Assembly (NCBI GenBank): GCA_051819685.1
Contig: JBNJGI010000002.1
Span: 2,638 to 66,637, forward strand
Direction: 5' to 3'
DNA: 64,000 bases
From: Nanobdellota archaeon
GTDB lineage: Archaea; Nanobdellota; Nanobdellia; Woesearchaeales; DATGWN01
The translations under genes were made by a program, and so were the position numbers. Of the stretch, positions 35,646-53,880 are shown in pieces; position 1 is the first letter of the stretch; each line of letters begins with the position of its first letter. The notes beneath the pieces were generated by a model. It saw only the letters and a program-made list of their open reading frames with translations. It made no database searches and was not told the origin of the DNA.

Positions 35646-36650
35646 TCAAACATAACTTTCAAGCAAAGCTCCAATTAAAATAAGCAGAACTGAAAGAAGC
35701 ATAAGTTCAAAACCATCTTTCATAACAATTGCGAAAGGTTTTGAATTCACTTTATTCTTAAGTATGGCAACACTGATAACTCCTCCGGCAATTGCTGCAC
35801 AAAAGAAACCTGCAAACTCAAAAACACCATGAACAAGCAAAGGTCCGACTATGCGAGGTATATCTATAAGATATGCGAAAATAACTTTTCCCGAAAGAAA
35901 ATTAGCAGTTCTGTGGAGACTATCTCCTATAAAAACACCAATTATAGAAGCATTCCATGCCAAAATGAATATAGAACCTGCTCCAAATATAAATGATGTA
36001 AGGAAAATAAAAATAAGGACTCCGAAATTATTAAAAAAAATATGCTGGAAAATAAAATTATTAAAACTCAATCTATTTCCTGACTCTTTTATCACAAACT
36101 TAGGTTCCCCTTCGGATGCCAATACAATTTCATCCTCACCATTTTTATTATAATCGGATAAAAAACATTTATCGATCCCTAACTCTTTATAATTATCCAC
36201 TCCTAATCCAAGACATGAATATTGCTTATTCACCTCTCTTTCATAATGTTCTTCTTGCATAACTGCAAATCCGAAAGGACCCTTAAGATCATAAATCCCA
36301 TTTATCTGCTCTTCAAAAATTTCTTCTCTCTGCATATCAGGCAATAATGTAAACCAGAAAGTGTTTGCAAGTATAAGGCCTATAAACATATAAGTCATCG
36401 GCATTATAATAGTATGACTTATTTTGAATCTTTTGTCTTTTTCAAATATTTTTTCCTGATTTTCTATCAGTTTAACAAAAATAGGGATGAGTGGTATTAT
36501 TGTAAATGTTACTGCAATGATAGAAGAATGTCCTGGGAAAATGAATATGCTAAGTATTATCCCGATACTTCCGGAAATAAATGATATAAATGCTAGAATG
36601 AAAGGTTTTTTCAGTAATGTCTTGTCGCTGAAAAGCATTTCGAATGTCAT
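35646..36650 (-). CDS. SpoIIM/DUF95-like integral membrane protein with inserted soluble domain
   Basis: IFFNNFGVLIFIFLTSFIFGAGSIFILAWNASIIGVF is typical of the stage II sporulation protein M family. A ~130-aa non-TM insert lies in the middle. Confidence 0.5.
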   Translation of the reverse strand: MTFEMLFSDKTLLKKPFILAFISFISGSIGIILSIFIFPGHSSIIAVTFTIIPLIPIFVKLIENQEKIFEKDKRFKISHTIIMPMTYMFIGLILANTFWFTLLPDMQREEIFEEQINGIYDLKGPFGFAVMQEEHYEREVNKQYSCLGLGVDNYKELGIDKCFLSDYNKNGEDEIVLASEGEPKFVIKESGNRLSFNNFIFQHIFFNNFGVLIFIFLTSFIFGAGSIFILAWNASIIGVFIGDSLHRTANFLSGKVIFAYLIDIPRIVGPLLVHGVFEFAGFFCAAIAGGVISVAILKNKVNSKPFAIVMKDGFELMLLSVLLILIGALLESYV

Positions 36651-36668: not shown

Positions 36669-37412
36669 TCACTTATATATTTTTCTTATAAAAGCAAGAA
36701 ATCCTGTATGCATAAGACCTATATGTGAAGGTCTTGTTTTTTCGCCCTCAATCTCCCATCTTCTTTCGATAACTTCTTTGATACCGTAAATTTCCATATC
36801 CATATCTCTTGCTTTATCTACAAAAGCTTTAAGTTGTGTTATCTGTGGGCAATAAGAAACAAGTCTTCCTCCCACTTTAAGTTTATTTTCAGCAACAGAC
36901 AACGCCTTTGCTGGTTCAGAAATATCTAAAGTTATTAGATCGAATTTTTTCCTTACAGGTATTTTCTGTGTTATATCTTCTTCAACAAACTTTATATTTT
37001 TAAGACCCAGTTTTTCAGCGTTTTTCCTTGTCTTTTCAATATGATTTTTTACATGATCCATACTATAAACTTTTTTCACATACCTTGCTAAGAAGCAAGT
37101 AAGTCCTCCCATACCTGCTCCGCAATCGAGAACAACTGAATTTTTTCCCGGCATTGTTTCAGCTAAAATTAAACCGCAATCCTTTAGATTTATTTTTTGG
37201 GCTCCTCTTTTCATAAAATTATAATCGTCATAAAAATCACCTTTTATCATTGCAACTTTTTTATCTTTAGATGTCTTTACTATATCACCATTTTTAGAAT
37301 CCCTGTAGTCAAAGAAATCAATTTTGCCTAATTTTGTAGATAAATTTTTTTCACTTTCAATTACGCTTTTATCTTTACAGTCTTTTTCCTCATTATTATA
37401 TACAAACCACAT
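36669..37412 (-). CDS. trmI: tRNA (adenine-N1)-methyltransferase TrmI (Gcd14 family)
   Basis: SAM motif VLDCGAGMGGLT, D-hK..N.....DIT.., and a C-terminal ...PSHIGLMHTGFLAFIRK typical of TrmI. Confidence 0.7.
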   Translation of the reverse strand: MWFVYNNEEKDCKDKSVIESEKNLSTKLGKIDFFDYRDSKNGDIVKTSKDKKVAMIKGDFYDDYNFMKRGAQKINLKDCGLILAETMPGKNSVVLDCGAGMGGLTCFLARYVKKVYSMDHVKNHIEKTRKNAEKLGLKNIKFVEEDITQKIPVRKKFDLITLDISEPAKALSVAENKLKVGGRLVSYCPQITQLKAFVDKARDMDMEIYGIKEVIERRWEIEGEKTRPSHIGLMHTGFLAFIRKIYK

Positions 37413-37413
37413 T

Positions 37414-40400
37414 TTAATGTTTCCTGTATTTCTTAAGAAGATGGTATATTGTTGTCAAAGGCCATCCAAGATCTATAAGGTGTTCTTTAATTTGTTTAAG
37501 TGTATATCCATCTCTGATCCATTTCTTAACTTGTATATTGATTTTTATCATGGCTGTATAATAATTCAGGTTGGAATATATTTTTTCATTATCATATCCA
37601 TTTATTAAAAGCTCTTCTTCAATTTCTTTTTCAGTCTTATTTTTGACTTTAAGATTATGTATCAATTTAAGCATATTTTCATCAATCTTTTCCATATTTA
37701 TGGCTTTTTTGTATTCTTTAGATATATTATCTATCTTACCTTTAACTTCATTTTCTTTCCAGCCAGTTTCAATTAATGCAGCCAGTATTTTTTCCTTACT
37801 TACTCCTTTTTTGAATTGTCTCTTAATATATTGTTCAAGTTTATTTTCAAGTGTTTTTTCATCTAAATACTGATTTTGTTCTGTTTTTTTATCACTTCCA
37901 TACATCTCTTTACTTTTTTTCTTAGTTTTAACTACAACTACTGAACTTGTAACCAATAATAATGCCAAAATAATTCCTATTATTATATATATCATATTTC
38001 CTATAGATTCAAATATACCTTTCTCTTCTTTCTCATCTTCAGGAGAAGGATAATCTGTTTCAGGATTATTATTATCCCATTCTACATCATCATCTTTTCC
38101 ATCCTCATCAGTTGTATCTTCTTCCTTATCATCTTTTACAGGATAATCATCTTTTTCAATCTCCTTTTTCCCTATAGCCCAATATGAAAATCCAGGAATT
38201 GAAACTTCATAAACATAATTATTTTTATTCTCGCTTATAAATTCCAGATTGTATTCTTTCCATGCATTATTTTCCCATCTATAAATTACAGCATTATCTT
38301 TATTTATCCCTTTGTCATTATTTTTATCTATTTCTATTTTCATACCTGCTTCACTTATTTTTGAATCTTCTATATTATTTGTTTTTATTTCAAATAATTC
38401 ATAAGCATCTATAAAATCAACATCTTCAGGCACCGATAAAATAGGTTTTAGTTCAATTTTCGCATAATCTAAATTTTCATTATAAGTGAAATCCAATTTA
38501 TTCACTGAAGTTTTTTCATTATTAATCTCAAAATCATTTGAAGTTCCACTTTCTATCTCATATAATCTTTTTACTGAACTTGTGGATACAGGTGCATAAC
38601 TTCCTCCGGAACTTCCTCCAGAACTTCCTCCGGAAGTTCCTCCGCCACCTTCATCTGTTTCTTCCTTATCAGTTATACATTTCTCATTGAAACCTATAAA
38701 TAATGAATTCTTATCATAATTCAGATCATTACAGCTTAAATTTGTGTTTTTTAATGTTATATTATGGTTTGAGCTATTCCCTCTTATATCTTCAACACTG
38801 ATATTAAGGTAGTAATCACCAATATCAGCTTCAATCATTGTTCCGAATATTATTCCTTTATCGGGTTTCATTCTTAAGTATCCGTCATTTCCATCAATTT
38901 CATCTTTATTTTCAAGGGAATAATTAAAACTATCAAGATCTGGGTCGTAGAAGTATTCCCTTAGATTTATTTCAGAATCGGTGATGATACTTTTATTCCA
39001 GAAAATGGTCGGTAATTTTGTTTTATTTTCTGGTTTTCTATTATCGATAATTATTGTCTTAAGACTGCTTGTCACATTATTATCTGCATAATCTGCAACA
39101 GTAACATTAAAGTCAAAAGAAAGACTGCTATTTAGTCTTGATTGGTTTGTATTCAAAGTTAATATAAAACTACTATCATCTTTACTTGACATAATTTTAT
39201 TTTCGAAATCACCTGTCTCATTTGATTTCAATATAGCTTTTTTAATACCATATGTATCATCAGCCATTATTTCAACAGTGATATTTTCATCATTATAATA
39301 TTTACCTTCTCCATTGATTTGATTAATTTTAGGATTTCCATTATCTTTGACTAAATCTATTTTTTTATTTTCTATCTGTCCTGAAATTCCGGATGCTGTT
39401 ATATTTAAAGTATATTGTCTTTCATTCATGCTTGTCATATCAATTCTTTTTTCTATAGTATCTGCAATTGTATCTGTAATAGTACTTTGTGTTTGTTTCG
39501 CTATTTCTCCAGAAACTTCATTTATAATATTGTATTCTATTTTGTTAGCATTATATACTTTTACTTTAAAAGGCATGCTTTCATTAAAATATATATCTTC
39601 ATTATAATAGTTATCTGAGTCTATTACCATCAAAAGACTGTTATCATCATAATAATTTAAATTATTGCTCATTATTGAATATCTTTCATCCACTTTAGTT
39701 ATAGCTTCAACTTCTGCATTCAATGTAAAATCTGAATCAAAGCTATCATTAAGCAATACTGTTATGTTAGGTTTATCTGATATGTATTCTTTTTTCTCAT
39801 TACCATTTTTAATTATAGTTATGTTATAATGGTCTATCAATTCTTTAAGATTCGGTTCATCCCATGTGATATTTAATTCATTACTTCTTAATCTTGTATT
39901 ATTTCCTGTAACATTATCAGATAATCTGACATTACTGAATACAGGTTCATATTTTTTATAATCAATGCATCTTGTCGTATATATAGGTGAATATACCATC
40001 CATTTTGACACTGTCTGGAATTCCAGGTAATAACATTTATCATCTGAAGGATTATCAATACTTATATTAGCGGAAGATCCATTATCGATAAAATCTTCTT
40101 TAATAATATTTGCCACTCCTTTTTGATTATCATTTTCATAGAGCTTGAAATAGGTTTTATCCATTTTCTCTTCATTGTTTTCAAATTCCCATGAAATGTT
40201 TACAAGATTCCCTCTAATATAATCATTTCTTCCGAGATAACCATCAAAAAAATCATAATCGCTCAATCTAATATCATCTGAATCATATATAAATTTCTTA
40301 TTTTCATTTCCAGAATTACCTGCTTTATCATGAATACTTACATTCACTTTATAATCATTGCTTTGGAAGTTATCATCCATATTATAATTAATAGATATGC

Positions 40401-43400
40401 TGTTGATATTTTTACTCACACTAAATTCATTTATAAGGTCTTCTTTATCATCTAAAACGAACGTATCGTTAGTCTTGTTATAATAAATAACGCTTCTATT
40501 AATATTTGCTGTAGATATTTTACCGAAAGTTATGTTTATATTTTTATCATAATCAATAAGATAGTTATCATCTATTTCTATTTTCATAGAACTTAGCTTG
40601 TGGATGATACTTTCGTTTTCTATAGTATTATTTATTTTTATTGAAGGTTCTTTCATATCATTCACAACAGAATCTGTTAATTTTAATTCTCCACCATCAT
40701 CCGAAAGGAATTTAATTATATTGGTTGCATTTTCTTTTATACTCATATTGAACTCAAATCTTCCAGTGATGTAAGAATGATCATAAAGATTTATGATATC
40801 ACCTTTTTCAGCCCTATCTTCCAAAGTATCATTCAATTCTATAATTAGATAATCAGGATTTGAATCAGTTATATTTTTATTATATTCATAATATTTCAGA
40901 TTATCTCTTATCTTACTTTTTCCGAGACCTATATATTTTGATTCTCCTTCTTTAAGAGAAAAATTATCCTTATTATAACCTCTGTCATCTTTTATAATAT
41001 AAATAGTTTTATCTCCTTCTTCAGCATCTTTAGCAAGTTCAGCGCTATGCACAACAGTATTATTATAAAATAATGATTTATTTTTTGTTACATTAGGATA
41101 GCTATCATAAATTGTTTCATTGTAGGCATATGCTGTAATGTTGGTATTATTAGTTTCCAATAATCCTGTTACTTTAATCTTGTTTTTATTTGTAAAGCTC
41201 GGTAATGGATTTACAGAAATTTCATAAGTTGTTTCTATAGTTCTATTAGAACCGGAAGTATTAAAACTGCTTCTAAGGCCTCTATTATCTTCTACCCTTA
41301 CTGAACATCTGACATCGCCTTTTTGTTCAGTAGAAAATTCTTTATAATCCTTACCATCACCTTCTTTTACTGTCTGGTAACCATAACCTTCGTCAAACTC
41401 CCATATATAATGGGTTGCACTTTTATTTTCCTGATCATTATTCCATCCACTATCAGGAACTTCATTACTATTATAATCATAATCACAGACAAACTCTGCT
41501 ATACCACTAGAAGTTTCTCTTGAAATTGTTACATTTTCAGCAGAAGGTATTGCATTTATCTTATAATCAATTATGGAGGAGTTTGAACATTGTTCTTTAT
41601 CACATACAAAGAAATATAATGTATCATTACCATTTTCTTCCATACTTATTTTACTTGAAAGTTCTATCGGATTTTCTATTGTATATGTATCTGTATAATC
41701 TATTGTCTTATCAAGACACCCTGTAACTGATACATCAGAAGAATTACAGATATACCCTGCAACCCTGTCACTATTTGAATCACTCCATCCAATATCAAAA
41801 TTATATGTTTTATTTTCATCAGTAAGGTTTAATCCATTGAATTCAGGAATATCTTCAGTAACTTCTGTAATAAAAGGTTTGTTTTCAATAAGGGGTTCTT
41901 CAGTATTTTCTCTAATGGCAATCCTGCTGGAGTTTGTTATTTGTTTCTTTGGAGCATCAGTGAATTCAATCTGGCAGTACCAATAATCTCCTTCTTCAGT
42001 TCTTATATTAGAAATTGTTTCTACATTTCTATATTGTTCTTCAAAACTATTAACTCCTATATTTTTATACCATATTATACTTATATTTGTTCCTACAATA
42101 TCGTCCCAATCTGAATTATTATAAATATTACCGCTCTGATTAAAAGTGAAATCACATTTAAGATTATCATCAGGCGATGATATATTATTATCGAATATTT
42201 TATTATCCGAAGAATTTACAATATTAATTCCTATATTCTCTCTTTCAACAGCTAATGTATAGTTTTCTTGTGAATTTTTATTAGCTTCAAGGTGTCCTGT
42301 CTCATCCATCACAAAAACTGTATAATTCTTATTTCCAGGACTCTCTTCAGGTATTGTCATAGAAATGCTTTTTGAATTTATACCCCTGCTCCCGAATACA
42401 TTTTCATTCCTATAGAGTTCACCATAAATACATCCGCTGTTCCTAATAATAGAGTTTGCTTCACTTGAGTTACCTTCACAAATATATATCCTATAATTAG
42501 TGGAATCTATATCATACCATTCTATATCTACATCAATCTGACTTCCGGAATATATTTTTTTATCCACATGGTCTTGTACATCTATAATAGCAGGCCTGTT
42601 CCCATCATCTTGTTCGTAGTCACTACTTACAATCTCTACAACCTCTGATGTATTTTTTTCACCCTCTAAGAATTCATCTATCGGAGTTACAGAGCATTTC
42701 CATTTATCTCCTGCTTCAGTAATACCATAAGGAAGTTCTTCCATATTTTCTTCAGCGCAAATACCTGATTCATAACAATTAGTCCATGTTTCAGAATTTT
42801 TGTTCTGTAAATACCAATCTATTGAATAATTGTTTCCACTAATATTCCAACGATTATCTTCATCTGTTATACTGAAATTGCATTTAAGGGTTTGGTTATC
42901 TTTCGCAATCCCCTCACTCTCGATATAATTATCAGGAGTTTTATTTAATTTATATAAAGTTACATTTTCAGCTTTTGGAGCATGATTCATATAATAATTT
43001 CCTTTTTTCGCTAAAGAGGTATCTTCACCATCTGATACAAAAACTGAATAAGATTGATTTAATTTGTCTGAAGGTTTGACCTCATAATCACACATAATTT
43101 CCGGTTGAGTTTCGCCTATGTTACTCACAGCAGTGCACATCAGATTGTCGCCACAACCCTCTCCCTCAGGATCATATCCTTCAGATACATAAAGGTTATC
43201 TGAACTGAAATTAAGTCTTCCTGTATTGTCATGTCCTGTTGTATTTGAAATTGTAAATATTTCTTCCCCTGAAGTTTTATTATAACTTGAATTATATTTC
43301 AAGGTAAAATAATTATTTCCGCTACCTTCAATATTACAAGTGGAATCATCAGTATCATTATTGATACATATCTTTATCGCGAAATCTTTTCCATCTTCAA

Positions 43401-46107
43401 CAACAGCATTATCAGTTACAAATCTTCTTGTCCTGTTCTTGACAAGAATGTTATTCTCATCTTTCATAATTAAAGTTGCATTACTTTTTGGGATTTTCCC
43501 ATATTCGTCTGTTTCATACACATATATATCAAAAATGGGTTCAGATATATTGGTTGAAGTTCCATTGGATATATCTGTGGCTTTCAACCATATTTCCCCT
43601 AGAGGCAGACCGTTATTTTCATGGAATAACCATAATGCGTTACTATTTGCATCAGAAGAATCTCCTATTTTTATTTCTTCATTTGATCCTTTTTTCTCTT
43701 TATTAGAGTAATCTTTACAAAAAGCGAAAGCAAGCTGTCCGTTTCCTAAGTCTGAATCATATGCTTCAGCATATAATTTAAGCACATCACCTTGATTTAC
43801 AGGCGAGTTGATATTAGCAGTATTATTTGTGTATCTGATAATTGGTACAAGATTCTCATCATATGTCTTTATTGTAGAGTTTTTCCAAGAACTATTCATT
43901 TCTTCATCCGATACCTTTACTGAACAGATAACTTCATCTCTGTCATCATATATAGGATATTCTAAAGTATTGCTATTCTCACTTTTTATCTTATAAAACT
44001 CTCCTATCCCTTCATTTTTAATAAACCATTTGAAATAACTGTCGGTTTGCTCATCATTATCTACATCATCAAAAGTATAATTACACAATAAATATTTTTT
44101 ATCCTCATTTGATTTATTAATTATTTGGATATTAGTTGGTTGAGGTTTTGCATTTGGAGTTGTTTTTTTGAAATTTTCAATAACTTTGAAATTTTCATTA
44201 TTCTGAAATGCAGTGAATTCAACACTAAAGTTTTTATCTTCTTCTAATATTATACTTCCATCATTGAAATTATAGGAACATTCATGTAGATTTTTATCGA
44301 AATCATATTCATTACAGTCAATCCTGTTTGTAATATAAGGTGTTTCTTTATAAACTCCGCTAGCGTTGAAAAATATGCTTTCACTTGAATCATTAATCTT
44401 GAAATTAAGTATAACATCATTATTACTTCTATTCATAGTTATATTAGGGTCGCCATAAATTCTTGGATATAAATCTCCTTCAGCTGAAACAGTTTGTGAA
44501 GAATCACTCGGGTAAGTATAACTTTCTTCATTTTTGTAATTAACTGTGAGTTCGTAGCTATATATTTGTCCTTCTTCTATGCTTTTATTATCAATGTAAT
44601 ATCCTTTTGAAAGGTTTTCTCCCGAGCTTATCGTAGTAAGATCATCAAACCCAGATCCCTTGTCTCTATCTATACTAATATTATTAACATCTAAATAATT
44701 TAATGTCCATTCTATTATAATTGAGGCATTATCGTAATGTTCAGCATTTACTGAATCAAAATTACCCTTATAGAAGTTTTTATCTCCTATTGTTTTATTA
44801 TTAGACGAATCAATCCATCCTGATTCATTTGTTCCATCACTCACATTTACTGAACATCTGATATCCATATCATCAAAAGAACCGTTCCTGTATATATTAT
44901 CTTCTAATTGTTGTTCTTTTTCTCCAGAAATATCATTCCAGCTTCCATCATAATATTGCCATCTAAAGTCTGGATATCCTCCTGAATCATCCTCACTATC
45001 TCCATCAATATCACTAAAACTGTAAGAACATTCAAGAAATTCATCAGAATATTCATCAATTTCTAATTTAACTTCTACATCAGCACTTGGAGGGGTGTTT
45101 TGAACATTTTTGGTACTTGTTAAAGTTGTAAATTTATTTGTATCGCTATCTTTGATTGTTCCTTCAAATAAAATGTCTTCATCTGCCTGTATGTCATTTA
45201 AATATTTAGTAACATTACAATAATGAGTTGTTGAATTATGTCTTTGACAATTAGCTTGATCTGTATATTCAGTTCCATTATAAGTGTAATTATAATATAA
45301 AGTTAAGGTATCTGCAGAATTCTTATCTTCAACTGAAACATCCCATTTAACTTCGTTTTCTGTTTTATCCATTGATATTGTTCCTTCGGCATTAGTAGGT
45401 CCGTAATTTATCTTCACATTTTTAGTAGTAGTATATTCTTCTCCGCATGTATAAATGATAGTTACATTATATTCTAATAGATTACCATCTTCAGTCCTAT
45501 AAACTTTATCTTCATACGAATCTTCGCCGACTGAATTAATATCAATATCATGTTGTCCTGATTTATTTTCAATACGGATTTTATCCAGATTTTCTTCGTA
45601 TACATCTTCACTATTAACTTTGTAATTAGCAGGATCCCAAGTTATGTTGATTGTTCCATTTCCTTTTTCTTCAAGAGATACAGAATCTAATTCATAAAAA
45701 TATTCTTCAAGAGTTGTAATTGGATCAAAAGTATATGATGCATAATCTGTAGAATTGCTTGCATTTATTTTAACTTTTATAAGTTGGTCTCTTTTTGATT
45801 CAAAATTATATTCTGTTTCAGTTATTTCTGTTCCGACAGTTCTCCAATCTATATTATCCCACTTTTTTAAAGTACCATCATCAGTTTGATTTTTTACATG
45901 AATTGTATAATTCGCATTAGTTATATCGGAAGCATCCCATTCAAGCTTTAGGATAAAATTGTTAATGCTATAATTATGAACAGTGTCTATAAGATTTGTC
46001 GGTTCGTTTGCTGCTATTGAATTAATTGAAAAAATTGAAAATAATATAAGAATCAATGCTAAAACAAAAACAAGCTTCACTCTTCCATTTTTATTTAATA
46101 ATCTCAT
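37414..46107 (-). CDS. giant (2897 aa) type I membrane surface protein, probably heavily N-glycosylated adhesin/S-layer-like
   Basis: Signal peptide MRLLNKNGRVKLVFVLALILILFSIFSINSIAA, with a very dense set of N-x-S/T sequons. At least 5 Cys-pair modules are present (LECSYSFSDIDGD...IRCSVNVSDG; LLCNYTFDDVDND...VICSVKVSDE; LKCNFSITDEDN...WKCSVTPID; LKCDFTFNQSG...WYCQIEFTD; FVCDYDYNSNE...VRCSVRVEDN). These are followed by a (GGS)n linker, a PGF-pre-PGF-like domain (...VSIPGFSYWAIG), an acidic stalk, a TM (IYIIIGIILALLLVTSSVVVV), and a ~190-aa basic cytoplasmic tail. Confidence 0.85.
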   Translation of the reverse strand: MRLLNKNGRVKLVFVLALILILFSIFSINSIAANEPTNLIDTVHNYSINNFILKLEWDASDITNANYTIHVKNQTDDGTLKKWDNIDWRTVGTEITETEYNFESKRDQLIKVKINASNSTDYASYTFDPITTLEEYFYELDSVSLEEKGNGTINITWDPANYKVNSEDVYEENLDKIRIENKSGQHDIDINSVGEDSYEDKVYRTEDGNLLEYNVTIIYTCGEEYTTTKNVKINYGPTNAEGTISMDKTENEVKWDVSVEDKNSADTLTLYYNYTYNGTEYTDQANCQRHNSTTHYCNVTKYLNDIQADEDILFEGTIKDSDTNKFTTLTSTKNVQNTPPSADVEVKLEIDEYSDEFLECSYSFSDIDGDSEDDSGGYPDFRWQYYDGSWNDISGEKEQQLEDNIYRNGSFDDMDIRCSVNVSDGTNESGWIDSSNNKTIGDKNFYKGNFDSVNAEHYDNASIIIEWTLNYLDVNNISIDRDKGSGFDDLTTISSGENLSKGYYIDNKSIEEGQIYSYELTVNYKNEESYTYPSDSSQTVSAEGDLYPRIYGDPNITMNRSNNDVILNFKINDSSESIFFNASGVYKETPYITNRIDCNEYDFDKNLHECSYNFNDGSIILEEDKNFSVEFTAFQNNENFKVIENFKKTTPNAKPQPTNIQIINKSNEDKKYLLCNYTFDDVDNDEQTDSYFKWFIKNEGIGEFYKIKSENSNTLEYPIYDDRDEVICSVKVSDEEMNSSWKNSTIKTYDENLVPIIRYTNNTANINSPVNQGDVLKLYAEAYDSDLGNGQLAFAFCKDYSNKEKKGSNEEIKIGDSSDANSNALWLFHENNGLPLGEIWLKATDISNGTSTNISEPIFDIYVYETDEYGKIPKSNATLIMKDENNILVKNRTRRFVTDNAVVEDGKDFAIKICINNDTDDSTCNIEGSGNNYFTLKYNSSYNKTSGEEIFTISNTTGHDNTGRLNFSSDNLYVSEGYDPEGEGCGDNLMCTAVSNIGETQPEIMCDYEVKPSDKLNQSYSVFVSDGEDTSLAKKGNYYMNHAPKAENVTLYKLNKTPDNYIESEGIAKDNQTLKCNFSITDEDNRWNISGNNYSIDWYLQNKNSETWTNCYESGICAEENMEELPYGITEAGDKWKCSVTPIDEFLEGEKNTSEVVEIVSSDYEQDDGNRPAIIDVQDHVDKKIYSGSQIDVDIEWYDIDSTNYRIYICEGNSSEANSIIRNSGCIYGELYRNENVFGSRGINSKSISMTIPEESPGNKNYTVFVMDETGHLEANKNSQENYTLAVERENIGINIVNSSDNKIFDNNISSPDDNLKCDFTFNQSGNIYNNSDWDDIVGTNISIIWYKNIGVNSFEEQYRNVETISNIRTEEGDYWYCQIEFTDAPKKQITNSSRIAIRENTEEPLIENKPFITEVTEDIPEFNGLNLTDENKTYNFDIGWSDSNSDRVAGYICNSSDVSVTGCLDKTIDYTDTYTIENPIELSSKISMEENGNDTLYFFVCDKEQCSNSSIIDYKINAIPSAENVTISRETSSGIAEFVCDYDYNSNEVPDSGWNNDQENKSATHYIWEFDEGYGYQTVKEGDGKDYKEFSTEQKGDVRCSVRVEDNRGLRSSFNTSGSNRTIETTYEISVNPLPSFTNKNKIKVTGLLETNNTNITAYAYNETIYDSYPNVTKNKSLFYNNTVVHSAELAKDAEEGDKTIYIIKDDRGYNKDNFSLKEGESKYIGLGKSKIRDNLKYYEYNKNITDSNPDYLIIELNDTLEDRAEKGDIINLYDHSYITGRFEFNMSIKENATNIIKFLSDDGGELKLTDSVVNDMKEPSIKINNTIENESIIHKLSSMKIEIDDNYLIDYDKNINITFGKISTANINRSVIYYNKTNDTFVLDDKEDLINEFSVSKNINSISINYNMDDNFQSNDYKVNVSIHDKAGNSGNENKKFIYDSDDIRLSDYDFFDGYLGRNDYIRGNLVNISWEFENNEEKMDKTYFKLYENDNQKGVANIIKEDFIDNGSSANISIDNPSDDKCYYLEFQTVSKWMVYSPIYTTRCIDYKKYEPVFSNVRLSDNVTGNNTRLRSNELNITWDEPNLKELIDHYNITIIKNGNEKKEYISDKPNITVLLNDSFDSDFTLNAEVEAITKVDERYSIMSNNLNYYDDNSLLMVIDSDNYYNEDIYFNESMPFKVKVYNANKIEYNIINEVSGEIAKQTQSTITDTIADTIEKRIDMTSMNERQYTLNITASGISGQIENKKIDLVKDNGNPKINQINGEGKYYNDENITVEIMADDTYGIKKAILKSNETGDFENKIMSSKDDSSFILTLNTNQSRLNSSLSFDFNVTVADYADNNVTSSLKTIIIDNRKPENKTKLPTIFWNKSIITDSEINLREYFYDPDLDSFNYSLENKDEIDGNDGYLRMKPDKGIIFGTMIEADIGDYYLNISVEDIRGNSSNHNITLKNTNLSCNDLNYDKNSLFIGFNEKCITDKEETDEGGGGTSGGSSGGSSGGSYAPVSTSSVKRLYEIESGTSNDFEINNEKTSVNKLDFTYNENLDYAKIELKPILSVPEDVDFIDAYELFEIKTNNIEDSKISEAGMKIEIDKNNDKGINKDNAVIYRWENNAWKEYNLEFISENKNNYVYEVSIPGFSYWAIGKKEIEKDDYPVKDDKEEDTTDEDGKDDDVEWDNNNPETDYPSPEDEKEEKGIFESIGNMIYIIIGIILALLLVTSSVVVVKTKKKSKEMYGSDKKTEQNQYLDEKTLENKLEQYIKRQFKKGVSKEKILAALIETGWKENEVKGKIDNISKEYKKAINMEKIDENMLKLIHNLKVKNKTEKEIEEELLINGYDNEKIYSNLNYYTAMIKINIQVKKWIRDGYTLKQIKEHLIDLGWPLTTIYHLLKKYRKH
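38599..38646 (-). repeat. 4 x 12-nt tandem repeat encoding the Gly/Ser linker of the giant protein
   Basis: acttcctccgga / acttcctccaga / acttcctccgga / agttcctccgcc on the + strand, encoding GGGGTSGGSSGGSSGGS. Confidence 0.9.
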
Positions 46108-46394
46108 ATCAGATCTAAGTTACCCTCCTTAGTTTTCCGGTAATCTTCTTTCGATTTTTCAATATTTTCTTTGTCAACACCAATCTTTTCAGACTTTTCA
46201 GAAATTTCATCAGTTATTTTTGAATTATCATCCAATGTTTCCAAAGGCACTTTTTTTAAAAGGATTCCTTCATCAGTAATAGAATAAGCATAAAATCCTG
46301 TTCCTTCCTCTATTCCAAGGTCTTGTCTTATATCTTTAGGTATTACAACCTGTCCTCTTTTATCGCATTGGACGATTCTTGGAAACTTTTTCAT
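46104..46394 (-). CDS. AbrB/MazE/SpoVT-family DNA-binding protein
   Basis: CDKRGQVVIPKDIRQDLGIEEGTGF is the swapped-hairpin barrel signature. Its TGA overlaps the ATG of the giant gene (ATGA at 46107-46104). Confidence 0.75.
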   Translation of the reverse strand: MKKFPRIVQCDKRGQVVIPKDIRQDLGIEEGTGFYAYSITDEGILLKKVPLETLDDNSKITDEISEKSEKIGVDKENIEKSKEDYRKTKEGNLDLI

Positions 46395-46409
46395 ATTTTT
46401 GAGCTCTAT

Positions 46410-46620
46410 TTCTGATTTTCAGTATTTTTATCAGATATAATTTATTTAACTTCTGATTTATAAATATTTCTATCAGTAATAAAGTATTTTATTCTCAATA
46501 TCTTAATTTTTTTCTGAAAATCAGAATTATTTTCTTAAAATTATAATTTATCCAAAGGACTTTTGATATTAATTATTCTTCAACATCAGAATCTGCTAAA
46601 ATAAAAAGTTTTTTTCAGAA
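46410..46620. promoter_or_regulatory. array of CTGA/TCAG half-sites and palindromes upstream of the AbrB-like/giant-protein operon (candidate operators)
   Basis: ctga-ttt-tcag at 46412-46422, a perfect ttctga-aaa-tcagaa at 46512-46526, and cagaatctg at 46587-46595. Further tctga/tcaga half-sites lie at 46431, 46452, 46473 and 46615. Confidence 0.4.
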
Positions 46621-46655
46621 AGTTGTATGGAGAAAGATTTCAAACGGGATTAAAT

Positions 46656-46970
46656 TCAATAAGGTTCGGGAAAAATTATCGAAGTTAGTGCTTTGTAAAC
46701 TACTGGATATTTTTCTTCCAAAGCAAACATCATTAAATTGTATTTCAATTTAAGATTATCTTTTTTTGCATAGAATTTTACATCATCAACAATTGAACCT
46801 CCTGGTAAAGGTCTTGACAATTCTCTTGCTCTATCTCTTTCCCATTCTTTTGGTTTCATAAATAATCCTCTTTCAATTTTTGACCGAGATATTACATGAT
46901 CTTTGTCAATACAAGGAATATCAGCACCTACATGTGAATCTATTGTCATAATTATCAGATATAAATTCAA
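46656..46970 (-). CDS. hypothetical protein
   Basis: ORF track only, with no recognisable motif. An alternative start (MTIDSHV) lies at 46949. Confidence 0.4.
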   Translation of the reverse strand: MNLYLIIMTIDSHVGADIPCIDKDHVISRSKIERGLFMKPKEWERDRARELSRPLPGGSIVDDVKFYAKKDNLKLKYNLMMFALEEKYPVVYKALTSIIFPEPY

Positions 46971-47043: not shown

Positions 47044-48006
47044 TCAAAGAAGTGCTGATTGTAATAAATTGTAGATGTAACCTGTTAGAATAATTGCTAA
47101 TGTTACTGCTCCAAAAAATATAGCAATTAATTTTAATTTCATTGCTCTTCTTAAAATGACTGCTTCAGGAAAACTTAGTGCTGCAATTGCCATCATAAAA
47201 GCTAGAGCTGTTCCGATTGGAACTCCTTTTTCAAATAATACAACAGCGATTGGAACTATTGCAGCACAGCTTCCATACATCGGCACCCCTAAAATAACAG
47301 CAATCGGTACCGCAAAAAAACTGCTTTTGCTTATTATTGATTGGATCATTTCCGCAGGAACATAATTATGGATAATCGCTCCAACCCCAACACCAATTAA
47401 AATTAGAACCCATAATTTTTTTATTATGGAAATAGCTTCATTCAGACCGAAATATAATCTTTTTTTGATTCTATCATATTTTATTTCTTTTTTGACTCCA
47501 TTATTTGTTGAAATAAAATCTTTGACTAAATATTTTTCAAGTTTCATTTTTCCAAGAATTAATCCTGATATTGTTCCTATCAAAATTCCGCTGATTACAT
47601 ATGCTAATGTAATTTTCCAGCCAAAAAACCCTAACATCAAAACCACAAGATACTCATTTACTAATGGAGAGGTAATTAAAAAAGAGAAATTTACACCTAA
47701 TGGAATACCTGCTTCTAAAAATCCAACAAAAAGAGGAATTGATGAACATGAACAAAATGGAGTTATTGATCCAAATAATGATGCGACAAGATTTCCTGAA
47801 CCATATTTTTTACCACTTATCCATTTTTTAACTTTATTTTGTGGCAAATAAGTCCTAAGGAATCCAATTATAAAAATCATAAAAAAAAGCAAGAGTATTA
47901 TTTTTATAGAGTCATAGATAAAAAAATTAAGTGATTCAACCCATTTTATTGTTGAATCCAGACCGATAGCTACATATAATATCCAATCTACAATTTCTTT
48001 TAACAT
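47044..48006 (-). CDS. permease of the ArsP/DUF318 family
   Basis: Polytopic membrane protein with the ITPFCSCSSIPLFVGF motif characteristic of PF03773 permeases. Confidence 0.7.
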   Translation of the reverse strand: MLKEIVDWILYVAIGLDSTIKWVESLNFFIYDSIKIILLLFFMIFIIGFLRTYLPQNKVKKWISGKKYGSGNLVASLFGSITPFCSCSSIPLFVGFLEAGIPLGVNFSFLITSPLVNEYLVVLMLGFFGWKITLAYVISGILIGTISGLILGKMKLEKYLVKDFISTNNGVKKEIKYDRIKKRLYFGLNEAISIIKKLWVLILIGVGVGAIIHNYVPAEMIQSIISKSSFFAVPIAVILGVPMYGSCAAIVPIAVVLFEKGVPIGTALAFMMAIAALSFPEAVILRRAMKLKLIAIFFGAVTLAIILTGYIYNLLQSALL

Positions 48007-50680: not shown

Positions 50681-51784
50681 CTATATATCAAACAACTTAT
50701 AGAAATTATTCTTATTTACGACAATAAAATTGTCCCAACCATCATGTTTTTTAGCTTTTGAACTATTATATTTGAATTCATAAGCAATTAATTTTCCAGA
50801 TCTTTCTTCTACAAGATCGACTTCTGCTCCGTCATATGTTCTCCAGAAATAATAGTTTGAATAAATATTATTGTATTCATTAAACTTTATCTTTTCTAAT
50901 ATGCATAAGTTTTCAAAAAGCGGCCCTGTATCATTTCTTGAATCAATAAAATTGAAATTATTTATTATTGCATTTCTTATACCTAAATCATAGAAATAAA
51001 TTTTATTTTTTGTTTTTAAATTTCGTCTTTGGTTCTTTTTAAATGCTGGAAGTTTAAAGACTACGTAATTTTTCTCTAATAAATCAATATATCTTTGTAC
51101 TGTTTTTTTGTCTATCCCTAAAAGATTTGCCAATTCATTATAAGATACTTCATTTCCAAGCTGTAAAGAGAGAGCTCTTAAAAGTTTGAAGATTATTTCT
51201 GAATTTTTTATCTTCTGGAATTCAAGGATGTCTTTGTAAAGATAACTTGAGCTTATTTCTTTTAGGAGTTTAATCTTATCTTCATAAGAATCATTTGATG
51301 CAATTTCAGGATAATTTCCAAATACCATGTGGTTTTCCAGATGCTTTTTCATATTTAATTTGTCAGAATAAATCTCTTTAAGAGATAGAGGGTAAATATG
51401 GAAAACATTTTTTCTTCCTGTTAGTGGTTCAGAAGTGCTGTCAAGAAGATTAATGCTTGATGAACCAGTTATTATAAACTGCTTCTTTTTTTTGAAATAA
51501 TCCACAAGAAGCTTAATTGTCTGTCCTATTGAAGCAACTTTCTGTGCTTCATCTATGAATATCACATCATAATCTGCAAACAAACCTTCAAGAAATTCAA
51601 TATCTTTGTTGTTTAAAATCTCTCTTTCAGTAGGATTATCACAATTGAATGTTTTTGATTTGTATGGTTCTATAATATCATCCACTAATGTTGTCTTTCC
51701 TACTTGACGAGCTCCAACTATTACAATTGCTTTACCTTTAAACAGGTTTTTTTCTATGTTTTGCTTTAATGTTCTTTTGTACAT
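50681..51784 (-). CDS. AAA+ ATPase, DUF4143-containing family
   Basis: Walker A GARQVGKTT, Walker B IFIDEAQ, the FGNYPE motif, and a C-terminal EVDLVEE...AYEFK nuclease-like fold motif. Confidence 0.8.
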   Translation of the reverse strand: MYKRTLKQNIEKNLFKGKAIVIVGARQVGKTTLVDDIIEPYKSKTFNCDNPTEREILNNKDIEFLEGLFADYDVIFIDEAQKVASIGQTIKLLVDYFKKKKQFIITGSSSINLLDSTSEPLTGRKNVFHIYPLSLKEIYSDKLNMKKHLENHMVFGNYPEIASNDSYEDKIKLLKEISSSYLYKDILEFQKIKNSEIIFKLLRALSLQLGNEVSYNELANLLGIDKKTVQRYIDLLEKNYVVFKLPAFKKNQRRNLKTKNKIYFYDLGIRNAIINNFNFIDSRNDTGPLFENLCILEKIKFNEYNNIYSNYYFWRTYDGAEVDLVEERSGKLIAYEFKYNSSKAKKHDGWDNFIVVNKNNFYKLFDI

Positions 51785-52402: not shown

Positions 52403-53545
52403 TTAAACCTCCTTTAACAAAGGTGAAATCTTTCTTAATTTATTTACCGTTTCATTCAATTCTTTTACGACATAATCTATTTCTTCTTTAGTGTTATATT
52501 TTGAAAGGGAAAATCTGACTGAATTATGGGATCTTTCAACATCATCGTGCATAGCCATTATAACATGAGATCCTTCAAGTGATTTGGATGAACATGCTGA
52601 GCCAGTTGAAACACAAATACCTTTCAATGAAAGATCATATATAATCGATTCTCCTTCTATATAATCAAAACTGAAATTTACATTATTACAAAGCCTGTTT
52701 TCAGAAGGACCATTCAATTTTGCACCATGGATGTCTTTTATTTTTAAAATCATATAATCTCTTAAGTCTTCAATTTTAGAAGTATTTTGTTTTAAAGATA
52801 CTGCTTCTGAAAATCCTGCTATCAAAGGCACATTCTCAGTTCCTGATCGAAGTTTTCTTTCTTGTCCTCCTCCATGTATTAAGGGTTCTAAATTTATACT
52901 ATCGTTAATATAAAGTGCACCTACGCCTTTAGGTCCATGTATTTTGTGAGCGTTAATTGTTATCATATCAGCCATAGATGATTTTATTTCTGTTTTCATG
53001 AAAGATTGGCATGCATCTGTATGTAAAATTACTTTTTTACTTTTACAGATATCATGAATTTTTCCCATTTCCTGAATGGTCCCAACTTCATTATTACCAT
53101 GTATGATTGAAACAAGGATAGTATCTTCATTAATTTTATCGCTAAGATCCTCCAATGAAATAAAACCTTCTTTATCGACATCAAGATATGTCACTTCAAA
53201 TCCTTTTTTTTCAAGCCATTTACATGTATTAAGGATGCAATCATGTTCAATTTTTGTTGTTATTATATGCTTACCTTTATCTTTATTTTTAAGAGCATAA
53301 CCTTTTATCGCAAGATTATTAGATTCGGAACCTCCTGACGTAAATATTATATCTTCAGGATTGCATTTTAAACTATCTGCAACAGTCTTTCTTGAATCTT
53401 CAAGAATATTTTTTGATTCATCTCCTTTATAATGTAATGAAGAGGGGTTTCCATGTATATTATCCATTACTTCTTTTATCCTTGAAGATACTTTTTCATC
53501 TACAATCGAAGTTGCCGCCGTGTCAAGGTATATGTTTCTTTTCAT
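52403..53545 (-). CDS. nifS: cysteine desulfurase (NifS/IscS type), paralog 1
   Basis: SGGSESNN, HTDACQ, NAHKIHGPKGVGALY (PLP Lys), RSGTEN and the active-site STGSACSS. The start MKRNIYLD at 53545 gives an ATGA overlap with the upstream ArsR stop. The track start is 53560. Confidence 0.85.
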   Translation of the reverse strand: MKRNIYLDTAATSIVDEKVSSRIKEVMDNIHGNPSSLHYKGDESKNILEDSRKTVADSLKCNPEDIIFTSGGSESNNLAIKGYALKNKDKGKHIITTKIEHDCILNTCKWLEKKGFEVTYLDVDKEGFISLEDLSDKINEDTILVSIIHGNNEVGTIQEMGKIHDICKSKKVILHTDACQSFMKTEIKSSMADMITINAHKIHGPKGVGALYINDSINLEPLIHGGGQERKLRSGTENVPLIAGFSEAVSLKQNTSKIEDLRDYMILKIKDIHGAKLNGPSENRLCNNVNFSFDYIEGESIIYDLSLKGICVSTGSACSSKSLEGSHVIMAMHDDVERSHNSVRFSLSKYNTKEEIDYVVKELNETVNKLRKISPLLKEV

Positions 53546-53880
53546 TTTTTTATAGTGCATTTTTCAGTGCAAAGATCACACTCATCCCTTAGTTCTATAT
53601 TTGAACAGTTTGTTTTCACATGTTTTTTAGCTAATTCCATCAAAGGTCTTATCGTTTCTCCATTAAGGGAATAAATTATTTTTTTTCCTTCCCTTTTCGA
53701 ATCGACAAAATGACATCTTGCTAAAAGCTTAAGATTGTGACTTACTTTGCTTTGCTCTTCTTCTGTTTTTTCAGATATCTCATTAACTGAAAGACTTTCA
53801 TTTGTCAATGATTCAAGTATTTTCAATCTTGTCTCATTTGCTATTGTATCAAAAAAGGGTTTATATGTTGATATTCTCAT
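53542..53880 (-). CDS. ArsR-family winged-helix regulator
   Basis: FDTIANETRLKILESLTNESLSVNEISEKTEEEQSKVSHNLKLLARCHFV, plus C-terminal Cys residues (CSNIELRDECDLCTEKC). Confidence 0.7.
   Translation of the reverse strand: MRISTYKPFFDTIANETRLKILESLTNESLSVNEISEKTEEEQSKVSHNLKLLARCHFVDSKREGKKIIYSLNGETIRPLMELAKKHVKTNCSNIELRDECDLCTEKCTIKK

Follow-up and report, generated by a model that had tools for sequence, protein, structure and literature searches.

The stretch of DNA considered here (the window, 64,000 nucleotides long) comes from a MAG of Nanobdellota (DPANN), a tiny archaeon of symbiotic type, and carries four close-packed genes on its minus strand:

46104..46394 (-), AbrB/SpoVT-family gene, putative autoregulator, 96 aa (ORF coordinates, PF04014 and TIGR01439)
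37414..46107 (-), gene for a giant type-I membrane-anchored surface glycoprotein, 2897 aa, without internal stop
36669..37412 (-), TrmI-type (GCD14) SAM-dependent methyltransferase gene, 247 aa (PF08704, TrmI structures)
35646..36650 (-), SpoIIM-family membrane protein gene, 334 aa (PF01944)

The coordinates are exactly those of the initial annotation, and its three closely spaced junctions were found when the sequence was read directly: the AbrB stop and the ATG of the giant gene share 4 nt (ATGA, within ctgatATGAgat), a single nucleotide separates the TAA of the giant gene from the methyltransferase ATG (cat TAA a ATG), and 18 nt lie between the methyltransferase TGA and the ATG of the SpoIIM-like gene. 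The methyltransferase matches the GCD14 profile PF08704 (45.4 bits; cut-off 26) and aligns over its full length with solved TrmI structures (3lga/3mb5, 5c0o/2pwy and 1i9g); the SpoIIM assignment is backed by 42.2 bits with PF01944 (cut-off 26.9). The giant reading frame is intact and without stops in independent assemblies, which speaks against a pseudogene, and the four genes are presumably co-transcribed.

The product of the first gene (NCBI MGM5483400.1) scores above the cut-offs of PF04014 (32.5 bits; cut-off 24.7) and TIGR01439 (39 bits; cut-off 28.3), and the nearest relatives of its family profile in the PDB are the N-domains of SpoVT and AbrB. The 96-aa family is tightly conserved (50-91% identity, full length), with an invariant recognition loop, DxRGQ(I/V)VIPKDIR. 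It counts against DNA binding that only one (R23) of the four classical DNA-contact arginines of B. subtilis AbrB is kept, the others being replaced by different invariant basic residues. The best Pfam name for the protein is MazE_antitoxin (PF04014), and 4-nt overlaps with a downstream gene are typical of toxin–antitoxin pairs, so it might be supposed that a MazE/AbrB-fold antitoxin here overlaps its cognate partner. This seems to us extremely unlikely: the downstream gene encodes an exported 2897-aa glycoprotein in which profile scans found no toxin domain, so that the idea fails at its central element; the family is TrmI-syntenic and conserved across the phylum, unlike mobile toxin–antitoxin loci; among solved structures it is AbrB and SpoVT that come closest to it, not MazE; and the MazE-specific NCBIfam model scores far under its cut-off.

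What speaks most strongly for a DNA-binding regulator is a feature that the initial annotation had overlooked, a conserved, phased, operator-like array immediately upstream:

46395..46655 (-), promoter/leader with phased array of TCAG half-sites and palindromes, ~20-bp period (20-nt register)
46514..46524 (-), distal palindrome core CTGATTTTCAG, extended TTCTGATTTTCAGAA, 130 nt 5' of the AbrB ATG (CTGAWWWTCAG match)
46457..46464 (-), TATA-like box TTTATAAA, candidate promoter element between the palindromes, 70 nt 5' of the AbrB ATG
46412..46422 (-), proximal palindrome core CTGAAAATCAG, 28 nt 5' of the AbrB ATG (CTGAWWWTCAG match)

The array, built of TCAG half-sites and TCTGA-WWW-TCAGA palindromes, comprises six units of ~20 nt extending from -133 up to the AbrB ATG. 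The 64-kb window contains two matches to CTGAWWWTCAG (0.12 expected), both in the AbrB promoter and 102 bp apart; the corresponding spacings in relatives are 100, 100, 120, 100 and 80 bp. The motif lies 5' of the AbrB gene in all six of the loci first compared and in 66 of 78 genome loci, and across loci 113 sites fall within 24.9 kb of upstream windows vs four in the other 1.19 Mb (an enrichment of ~1350-fold), spaced by multiples of 20 bp. Distances between TCAG pairs peak at 20, 40, 60/61, 80, 100 and 120 nt, and 59% of pairs are on this lattice against an expected 16% (59 loci). Where exact palindromes are missing, 20-bp half-site arrays are present 3' of a conserved TATA box, and arrays of at least three phased TCAG elements are almost absent outside AbrB promoters. 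The TATA-like region is part of a block (GATAGAAATATTTATAAATCAGA) kept in L207 and L208, the two nearest relatives, and in many loci a TATA box lies 23-27 nt 5' of the first site. The invariance of the recognition loop matches that of the TCAG half-site, and the AbrB-like protein is the candidate binder of the array; the type of operator apparently co-varies with AbrB residues 32/33, although this association is confounded by clade.

The entire array is 3' of the TATA box in many loci, so that sites 2 to n, the majority, would lie in the transcribed leader, and the last site directly adjoins the start codon (core-to-ATG distance mostly 14-25 nt). This leaves room for a role at the RNA level, with an RNA-binding protein acting on the 5' leader, or the sites might serve some other transcription factor. 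In either case the AbrB-like protein would do something else, perhaps assisting the nascent giant as its chaperone or partner: proteins that work together are typically encoded by genes in such close translational coupling. We regard these possibilities as improbable. A 20-bp period (two helical turns) combined with palindromes is a hallmark of dimeric DNA binders, the stems of any hairpins would reach only 4-5 bp, and an Rfam search of the window gave no matches. Degenerate sites have lost one arm without any compensating change in the other, which argues for half-site recognition by protein on DNA and against an RNA hairpin. As to another role for the small protein, its nearest relatives are DNA-binding domains, and array and AbrB gene occur together even in loci that lack a giant.

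A stretch of AT-rich intergenic DNA that carries phased dyad repeats could also be a replication origin (L002 and L004 have an MCM gene close by) or an invertible promoter acting as a phase-variation switch, the TATA box being flanked by two inverted-repeat sites in this window and in its closest relatives. We give either idea very little chance: none of the metagenomic loci has an orc1/cdc6 or recombinase gene adjacent to the array, and the upstream neighbours vary freely; the GC skew of the window follows gene orientation, with no extremum at 46.4 kb; and the repeats do not enclose the TATA box in most loci, no variants of opposite orientation being found among about 80 loci.

The giant protein itself has the following features:

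46006..46107 (-), signal-peptide-like N-terminus, aa 1-34 (...FSINSIAA/NE; hydrophobic segment)
44788..45105 (-), Cys-pair Ig/FN3-like module 1, aa 335-440 (alignment A2, AF2 model)
43858..44160 (-), Cys-pair module 2, aa 650-750 (self-BLAST against module 1, E = 7e-11; alignment A2)
42628..42960 (-), Cys-pair module 3, aa 1050-1160 (self-BLAST, alignment A2)
41908..42234 (-), Cys-pair module 4, aa 1292-1400 (self-BLAST, alignment A2)
41233..41565 (-), Cys-pair module 5, aa 1515-1625 (self-BLAST, alignment A2)
38599..38649 (-), Gly/Ser linker GGGGTSGGSSGGSSGGS, aa 2487-2503
38173..38559 (-), PGF-pre-PGF domain, aa ~2517-2645 (TIGR04213)
38017..38157 (-), acidic stalk, aa 2651-2697, 23 D+E in 47 aa
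37924..38016 (-), C-terminal transmembrane helix, aa 2698-2728 (hydropathy scan)
37417..37923 (-), cytoplasmic tail, 169 aa, three ~30-aa helical repeats (alignment A4, AF2)

Nearly all of this architecture had been anticipated in the initial annotation. The proposed signal peptide corresponds to a hydrophobic segment at aa 7-34, and the hydropathy scan gave a single transmembrane helix, as claimed, whose position is conserved in orthologues. The reportedly extreme density of N-glycosylation sequons is real (110 in the whole protein vs 50 expected), and is confined almost entirely to the ectodomain, with 108 sequons vs 48.7 +/- 5.9 in 2000 shuffles (z = 10) and only two in the tail. The claim of at least five Cys-pair modules is upheld by an alignment of five in which Cys, Trp, Cys and Asp are invariant; module 1 is modelled by AF2 as a beta-sandwich (pLDDT 76.5) with weak Foldseek matches to class-II cytokine receptor FN3 domains (best E = 1.1e-3, TM 0.55). 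The (GGS)n linker and the acidic stalk are where the list places them, relatives having equivalent Gly/Ser linkers 5' of the anchor region, and the PGF-pre-PGF-like domain, missed in a full-length scan, was recognized by TIGR04213 when this segment was scanned by itself (E = 4.3e-12, 46.3 bits; cut-off 28) and also in the L001 orthologue. The tail needs redescription: it is cytoplasmic, as proposed, but is not a simple basic extension (37 K+R vs 26 D+E in 169 aa), being instead a conserved, confidently helical repeat domain (eight helices, pLDDT 79) with the motif Y-I-x3-L-x-K-G-x-S/T-x3-I-x3-L-x3-G-W, present in one to four copies in orthologous tails. No fold match for the tail model was found in the PDB. 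Since domain-profile scans revealed no recognizable binding or enzymatic domain in the ectodomain, it is architecture that suggests an adhesin.

Pairing of the AbrB gene with a giant reading frame extends well beyond this genome. A surface-type ORF (signal peptide, sequon-rich, 313 to >3333 aa in the genome survey) lies directly 3' of the AbrB gene in 47 of the 63 species-level genomes that have a full-length orthologue; 38 of these 47 have the 4-nt overlap and 31 encode at least 1400 aa. Likewise, in six of eight metagenomic relatives an ORF of 1993-5078 aa overlaps the AbrB stop by 4 nt. The position is best thought of as a slot, which holds one to three genes depending on the genome: on the complete chromosome L044, for example, the order is AbrB, 357 aa, 333 aa, 975 aa, TrmI, all junctions being 4-nt overlaps. 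The linkage to trmI noted earlier also holds, with a same-strand homologue 3' of the AbrB gene in ~34 related loci, whereas SpoIIM follows TrmI only in closer relatives.

The AbrB-like protein is not, however, exclusively the dedicated partner of giants that it was at first taken to be. In about nine genomes (e.g. L006, L043, L046, L055, L056, L064 and P0092) its gene adjoins TrmI directly with no surface gene between them, and domain-only 53-aa AbrB paralogues overlap TrmI by ATGA, so the regulator may serve TrmI or the whole operon and not specifically the giant. It could be argued from this that AbrB and TrmI form the ancestral unit and that between them lies a permissive, well-expressed insertion hot-spot that has time and again taken up and exchanged genes for surface proteins, with no specific functional tie between regulator and giant; the slot contents are non-homologous in 37 of 47 genomes, and in L016 and L048 they are unrelated cytoplasmic genes. 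We consider this rather unlikely. The ATGA coupling is kept in 38 of 47 genomes despite complete turnover of the first slot gene, which implies selection on the junction; the pair of AbrB and surface gene persists in L002, L004 and L009, where TrmI is absent nearby; and slot proteins are almost always of one class, sequon-rich and TM-anchored, with an N-terminal hydrophobic segment in nearly all. Even a passenger giant would still be placed under the AbrB promoter.

Sequence change in the slot protein greatly outpaces that in the neighbouring genes' products, and is most rapid at its membrane-distal N-terminus. Identities to L001 and L003 are 72% and 66% for AbrB, 54% and 42% for TrmI, and 28% and 23% for the giant, this last being the range (23-28%) for homologous giants that occupy the slot elsewhere; among the nearest relatives, identity is 89-91% for AbrB but only 40-41% for the N-terminus of the giant. 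BLAST with the giant detects 10 of the 47 slot proteins, none of which matches aa 1-400. Such rapid evolution fits a cell-envelope protein in contact with hosts, viruses or the environment, and together with the architecture it would be consistent with a role in host attachment.

The reading that we favour, and hold to be probable, is that of an operon, widespread in the Woesearchaeota/Nanoarchaeota lineage (Nanobdellota), which is autoregulated by AbrB and whose conserved slot accommodates hypervariable surface glycoproteins. In this picture the order of the genes, their couplings and conservation, the cis-array and its specificity, the domain content and the contrast in rates are observed, whereas the AbrB-like protein as binder of the array, the direction of regulation and a role as adhesin or in the envelope are proposals. 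The AbrB/SpoVT-type product of the first gene would bind cooperatively to the helically phased 20-bp array, from just 3' of the TATA box to the start codon, and thereby regulate its own operon, most likely by repression. Translational coupling through ATGA would tie the regulator to any occupant of the slot, that is, to one or more putatively Sec-exported, heavily N-glycosylated and C-terminally anchored proteins made of Ig/FN3-like beta-sandwich modules (here a single one of 2897 aa), and the operon would usually end with the TrmI-type tRNA methyltransferase, to which this subclade adds SpoIIM. A regulator coupled in this way could provide negative feedback on, or switching of, a very costly gene. 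We found no earlier description of such a cassette, and the fact that it recurs in dozens of related species suggests a hitherto undescribed means of controlling surface proteins.

Compatible with this operon model is the idea, which we entertain only tentatively, that the giant serves the cell as its S-layer or principal envelope protein and not as a host adhesin. The size range of slot proteins (313 to >5000 aa, sometimes in three genes) would be unusual for a lattice former; the long structured cytoplasmic tail also counts against the idea; a repressor-type promoter is not to be expected for a constitutive bulk protein; and profile scans detected no S-layer family. On the other hand, there is one conserved locus per genome, N-glycosylation is predicted to be heavy, and slot proteins show the rapid sequence turnover typical of S-layer proteins. 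The C-terminal anchor cassette, moreover, is common to about 900 protein clusters, and in its transmembrane anchor, stalk and PGF-pre-PGF domain the giant resembles the surface glycoproteins of euryarchaea.

The operon that encodes the giant surface protein comprises four minus-strand genes, all of which ORF calling placed at the coordinates assigned to them in the initial annotation. These genes and the region preceding the first of them are as follows.

46395–46655, minus strand: promoter array of six ~20-nt units, with full palindromes at −130 and −28 and TTTATAAA at −70 (sequence register)
46104–46394, minus strand: AbrB-like gene, 96 aa
37414–46107, minus strand: giant ORF, 2897 aa, without internal stop
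36669–37412, minus strand: methyltransferase, TrmI-type (PF08704)
35646–36650, minus strand: SpoIIM-family protein (PF01944)

The tight junctions that had been claimed can be read in the sequence itself: an ATGA overlap joins the AbrB-like gene to the giant, a single nucleotide separates the giant from the methyltransferase gene (TAA-a-ATG), and 18 nt separate the latter from the SpoIIM gene. The methyltransferase scores 45.4 bits against the GCD14 model PF08704 (cut-off 26), and its residues ~19–246 align by phmmer, at E ~ 1e-14 to 1e-17, to TrmI of P. abyssi (3lga, 3mb5) and of T. thermophilus (5c0o, 2pwy) and to Rv2118c of M. tuberculosis (1i9g). By this full-length similarity, which includes the N-terminal beta domain, it is a member of the TrmI/GCD14 family; in the NCBIfam scan it reached no equivalog threshold, and m1A57/58 methylation of tRNA is its putative activity. 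The SpoIIM-family protein scores 42.2 bits against PF01944 (cut-off 26.9). Neighbouring proteins of the window have the NCBI accessions MGM5483396–3402 (the AbrB-like protein being MGM5483400.1), and the exact giant sequence was absent from the protein collection searched, in which its neighbours are present. The rest of the window consists of ordinary housekeeping genes, and no RNA family was found anywhere in it with Rfam. Cumulative GC skew climbs as far as ~36 kb and declines thereafter, tracking the switch from plus- to minus-strand genes, and a replication-origin reading was rejected. The window also holds two paralogous AAA_14 + DUF4143 ATPase genes (14103–15311, plus strand; 50681–51784, minus strand) and two neighbouring class-V aminotransferase (cysteine-desulfurase-like) paralogues (52403–53560 and 53983–55140, both minus strand).

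What kind of regulator might the first gene encode? Two models are matched by the N-terminal 50 residues of its 96-aa product, TIGR01439 at 39.0 bits (cut-off 28.3) and PF04014 at 32.5 bits (cut-off 24.7). The nearest solved structures in the PDB for the family profile are the DNA-binding N-domains of SpoVT and AbrB (E = 5e-5), with which the motif GR/QVVIPxxxR...ILLKK aligns. Judged by its sequence, the protein has a bona fide AbrB-type domain and belongs to the AbrB/SpoVT domain family. Its own family extends through Woesearchaeota and Nanoarchaeota at 50–91% identity over the full length, and the loop DxRGQ(I/V)VIPKDIR is invariant in it, paralleling the invariant TCAG half-site of the promoter. 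Residues 32/33 correlate with operator type, but clade confounds this signal and we do not count it as evidence. Other families were considered and rejected. A MazE-type toxin–antitoxin system is disfavoured by the downstream gene, whose product is an exported 2897-aa protein without a Pfam or NCBIfam toxin domain, and the AbrB-like protein falls far below the cut-offs of MazE- and Doc-partner-specific models. It lacks the tandem MraZ/UPF0040 (PF02381) domains of the MraZ family (a Pfam scan of the 96-aa protein gives PF04014 alone), and for HgcC (NF040962) it reaches 30.8 bits where the cut-off is 70, hgcAB genes being absent from the window. The C-terminal half of the family (residues 50–96, family alignment A1) is conserved too, whether or not the locus has a giant, with EKSxKIG... 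and two invariant residues, Y85 and G91. In several loci, part of its coding region forms a GGAGG-like sequence 16 nt upstream of the giant ATG, so coding and ribosome-binding constraints may overlap there.

The 261-nt region upstream of the AbrB-like gene contains the palindrome TCTGA-WWW-TCAGA twice, and these are the sole matches to CTGAWWWTCAG in the 64-kb window (0.12 expected). In six of the first six related loci, one of them without a giant, the palindrome is found upstream of the AbrB gene and nowhere else. The upstream windows of 78 genome loci, 24.9 kb in all, contain 113 sites, compared with four in the other 1.19 Mb (~1350-fold enrichment), and in 66 of the 78 the gene is preceded by a conserved, phased array of palindromes or half-sites. 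Site spacings are multiples of 20 bp. Where a locus has no exact palindrome, WWTCAGMAA half-sites recur at 20-bp intervals, the first of them ~12 nt past a conserved AACATTTAAATA box. Distances between TCAG pairs peak at 20, 40, 60/61, 80, 100 and 120 nt, with 59% of pairs on the lattice (16% expected) and a density three times that of control regions; runs of at least three phased half-sites are almost confined to the AbrB promoter. The two closest relatives retain the TTTATAAA block. When the 16-mer TTCTGAAAATCAGAAA was sought across all metagenomes, at least 120 loci were found, one of which adjoined an AbrB gene among the matches listed; chance matches dominate at such a scale, so the scan is uninformative on operator specificity.

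Does such an array act as DNA or as RNA? It may act at the RNA level, but degenerate sites retain one arm with no compensatory change in the other, which speaks for a protein that recognises half-sites in DNA and against an RNA hairpin. The AbrB-like protein, as the candidate regulator, would bind the array and autoregulate the operon. Regulation is likely to be repression, since there is overlap between the first site and the predicted start, and the last site abuts the ATG. An invertible promoter (inverton) was also considered as a reading of the array, and rejected. Between the array and an ArsP-type permease gene (47044–48006) there is a 104-aa ORF with a TTG start (46656–46970, minus strand), for which no Pfam or NCBIfam family was matched; the upstream neighbours of the AbrB gene are different in every relative.

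The pairing of the AbrB-like gene with a giant, noticed at first in the window alone, recurs in relatives: in six of eight metagenomic contexts the AbrB gene has a 4-nt overlap with an ORF of 1993–5078 aa, and in the two most distant it adjoins a GCD14-type methyltransferase gene, with no giant ORF. Species-representative genomes, when scanned, yielded 80 loci. Among the 63 with a full-length orthologue, 47 have a sequon-enriched ORF with a signal peptide, of 313 to >3333 aa, directly 3′ of the AbrB gene; the ATGA overlap is present in 38 of these 47, 31 encode 1400 aa or more, and 13 extend past the end of the 10-kb flank. A TrmI homologue is found downstream on the same strand in ~34 loci, either directly after the surface gene(s) or, where there is no surface gene, after a gap of 115–299 nt. 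From the conserved pair and its linkage to TrmI, the conserved frame is AbrB, a variable surface-protein slot, and TrmI; SpoIIM follows TrmI in this subclade only. The main rival explanation is that AbrB and TrmI form the core and that the surface genes are passengers in an insertion hot-spot, as the existence of loci without surface genes would suggest; against this, the ATGA junction persists and the slot is held by a single protein class. The gene cluster is a real, conserved and translationally coupled operon with a highly specific phased promoter array.

Some individual loci deserve mention in their own right. In a complete Woesearchaeota chromosome (OY970338.1; L044:10001–16002) the slot holds three signal-peptide proteins of 357, 333 and 975 aa, and 4-nt overlaps link the whole series of five genes, AbrB to TrmI. 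Four loci (L075, L078, L079 and L080) have 53-aa, domain-only AbrB paralogues with palindromes upstream, coupled directly to TrmI; on one contig, CAZVVW010000002.1, AbrB95 with a giant (L054) is followed ~16.6 kb downstream by AbrB53 with TrmI (L080). Tandem AbrB genes, in which a 50-aa copy has an ATGA overlap with a full-length 96-aa copy, are seen at L066:8033–8460 and L073:2832–3259, and in two genomes (L016, L048) the slot encodes, in place of a surface protein, a ~460-aa cytoplasmic protein without a signal peptide, whose sequence begins ...LEFKxxxSEPDRIVE.... Many of the ENA TPA MAGs with a Woesearchaeota-type locus (within L007–L086) are titled ‘uncultured Methanosarcinales archaeon’, and one (L056) ‘Alphaproteobacteria bacterium’; these titles probably reflect mislabelled or contaminated bins.

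Within this frame the genes evolve at very different rates. Identities to the related loci L001 and L003 are, respectively, 72% and 66% for AbrB, 54% and 42% for TrmI, and 28% and 23% for the giant; in the closest relatives (two independent assemblies) AbrB is 89–91% identical and the first 190–266 residues of the giant 40–41%. The giant ORFs are intact in both of those assemblies, which speaks against the possibility, raised in the initial annotation, of a pseudogene. By BLAST, 10 of the 47 slot proteins are detectable from the window giant, and none covers its residues 1–400. Taken with the low identity at the N-terminus, this makes the membrane-distal tip the fastest-evolving part of the protein.

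The giant has a signal-peptide-like N-terminal hydrophobic segment (residues 7–34) and one C-terminal transmembrane (TM) segment (residues 2698–2728). Its supposed richness in N-x-S/T sequons is borne out by the ectodomain, which has 108, compared with 48.7 ± 5.9 in shuffled sequences (z = 10); the cytoplasmic tail has two. Self-comparison reveals a modular protein with super-repeats of ~310 and ~240 aa, and the five Cys-pair modules previously discerned do align, with Cys, Trp, Cys and Asp invariant. Modelled with AF2 from the five copies, the module is a sandwich of beta strands throughout (pLDDT 76.5, pTM 0.72). Foldseek gave weak matches only for it, all to domains of FN3 type, in titin and in class-II cytokine receptors (the best, to the receptors, at E = 1.1e-3 and TM 0.55), and no Pfam Ig or FN3 family matched the module even at E ≤ 10. 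We tentatively call it a generic Ig/FN3-like module of no specific family. The giant is a predicted glycosylated type-I surface protein of Ig/FN3-like modules, and an extremely divergent one; its role may be that of an S-layer protein.

Towards the C-terminus, the described order of Gly/Ser linker, PGF-pre-PGF domain, acidic stalk (23 D+E in 47 aa) and TM segment was recovered. The isolated region 2490–2650 matches PGF-pre-PGF (TIGR04213) with 46.3 bits (E = 4.3e-12, cut-off 28), and the L001 orthologue scores 42.6 bits, yet scans of the full-length giant with Pfam and NCBIfam gave no match at all, missing PGF-pre-PGF, and revealed no ATPase domain. An exhaustive HMMER search with the C-terminal 1200 aa gave 891 cluster representatives, of which only seven are similar along the length; most share just the linker, PGF-pre-PGF, stalk and TM segment, at the C-terminus of proteins of 195–3195 aa, so these elements form a common anchor. 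Word-indexed protein searches with the full giant, or with its anchor and tail, are uninformative on homologues, which exist, because low-complexity words saturate the index; since full-length hmmscan also misses PGF-pre-PGF, giants of this sort probably go under-annotated. Just before the Gly/Ser linker, the L002 and L004 giants have a Cys-framed acidic motif, C-x-N-x-[IL]-D-D-D-Y-D-G-x-x-D-E-x-C, which may be a metal-binding module; the L005 giant (5078 aa) has a weak precomputed Cu-binding_MopE match, and in the window giant a pair of Cys residues (C2459, C2477) occupies the corresponding position.

The tail had been characterized as basic. It is indeed present, but it is not just basic: a ~30-aa motif, Y-I-x3-L-x-K-G-x-S/T-x3-I-x3-L-x3-G-W, occurs in three copies and recurs in orthologous tails, and the predicted structure, modelled from an alignment of sequences from the exhaustive search, has eight helices (pLDDT 79). 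Foldseek found no recognisable relative of this fold in the PDB (best match E = 0.065). A RecX-like tail was rejected, PF21982 (14.1 bits) and PF02631 (19.3 bits) being sub-threshold (cut-off 26 each) and Foldseek finding no RecX.

How might these elements work together? We infer that the giant is a contact or envelope protein under diversifying pressure. What we judge to be the new aspect of the locus is that an AbrB-type, putatively autoregulated operon, whose 20-bp operator lattice is distinctive, is here tied to a hypervariable slot for surface proteins. A broader proposal, which we advance tentatively and would ourselves lean somewhat against, is that Woesearchaeota and Nanoarchaeota share a dedicated, phylum-wide ‘surface-protein expression cassette’. 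Its conserved AbrB-type repressor would polymerise on the operator array of 20-bp period and gate an exchangeable, hypervariable slot encoding one or more host-contact glycoproteins; the whole would serve as an on/off or dosage switch for attachment, and the slot would turn over rapidly under arms races with hosts or viruses. In a further and less likely extension, the conserved helical-repeat cytoplasmic tail of the giant would feed back on the regulator.

Most DPANN archaea have not been cultured, and it is an open question by what means they recognise their hosts and attach to them; giant surface proteins are the usual suspects, and we know of no account of how such proteins are controlled. 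The present locus provides a conserved 96-aa candidate regulator that is easy to express, together with a cis-element of precise definition, a 20-bp lattice of TCAG half-sites, which lends itself to tests in vitro without cultivation. The arrangement AbrB ... TrmI is moreover a landmark that pinpoints the hypervariable surface gene in any genome of Woesearchaeota or Nanoarchaeota, even where the surface protein has diverged beyond recognition (37 of 47 cases).

Among known systems, the ‘SPEARE’ proteins of Nanohaloarchaeota are, on description and domain content, of the same kind as the giant: they are giant, Sec-exported, membrane-anchored DPANN surface proteins in which Ig/fibronectin-like domains form arrays, genomes that are otherwise collinear differ in them, and a role in host interaction has been proposed for them (PMC10266531). 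However, SPEARE proteins are of 5000–9400 aa and have a VirB4/TraG-like ATPase domain, with a secretion ATPase gene downstream (PMC10266531), whereas the giant has no ATPase or Pfam domain, ends in PGF-pre-PGF, a TM segment and a helical-repeat tail, and sits between an AbrB regulator and TrmI, with SpoIIM next. In the absence of the ATPase domain, and with TrmI and SpoIIM as the downstream genes, we rejected SPEARE membership. The extreme divergence of the giant is consistent with single-cell genomics of hot-spring Nanoarchaeota populations, in which cell-surface proteins have the highest densities of non-synonymous SNPs; that study reports no regulator linkage or cis-element (PMC6142677). 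Our literature search found no paper that links Woesearchaeota with AbrB or describes an AbrB–giant pair. With euryarchaeal PGF-CTERM glycoproteins the giant shares PGF-pre-PGF, an acidic or Thr-rich stalk, a C-terminal TM segment and heavy (predicted) N-glycosylation, but it has no PGF-CTERM signal (no NCBIfam match) and has a structured tail of 169 aa after the TM segment in place of a few basic residues, so archaeosortase processing is not expected and we rejected the reading of the giant as an archaeosortase A substrate.

The regulator itself shares with AbrB/SpoVT of Bacillus an N-domain of the swapped-hairpin type and the position of a small protein encoded first in its operon. AbrB oligomerises and binds extended, phased regions of DNA, and by analogy the 96-aa protein would be expected to do the same. 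It differs from Bacillus AbrB in being archaeal (DPANN), in its unrelated, conserved 46-aa C-terminal half, and in the translational coupling of its gene to that of a surface protein; of the four key arginines of AbrB, it keeps only one. Its presumed target, moreover, is a well-defined TCAG array of 20-bp period, in contrast to the loose consensus of AbrB.

In its logic the locus resembles mraZ–mraW (MraZ–RsmH). In the system that Eraso et al. are said to have described in 2014, mraZ comes first in the dcw cluster, an operon with an RNA methyltransferase gene and envelope genes, and reportedly autoregulates through regularly spaced repeats (TGGGN, with 10-nt spacers) between promoter and start codon. 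The shared order of ideas (an AbrB-superfamily regulator first, an RNA methyltransferase, an envelope gene) is a functional analogy and not family membership: the present regulator has neither PF02381 nor the tandem-domain architecture, the methyltransferase is of TrmI type and not RsmH, the repeats are TCAG at a 20-bp period, and the envelope gene encodes a hypervariable giant glycoprotein. With those differences, the locus offers an archaeal parallel to bacterial mraZ–rsmH, in which a putative AbrB-fold autoregulator, an RNA methyltransferase and envelope genes are combined in one operon.
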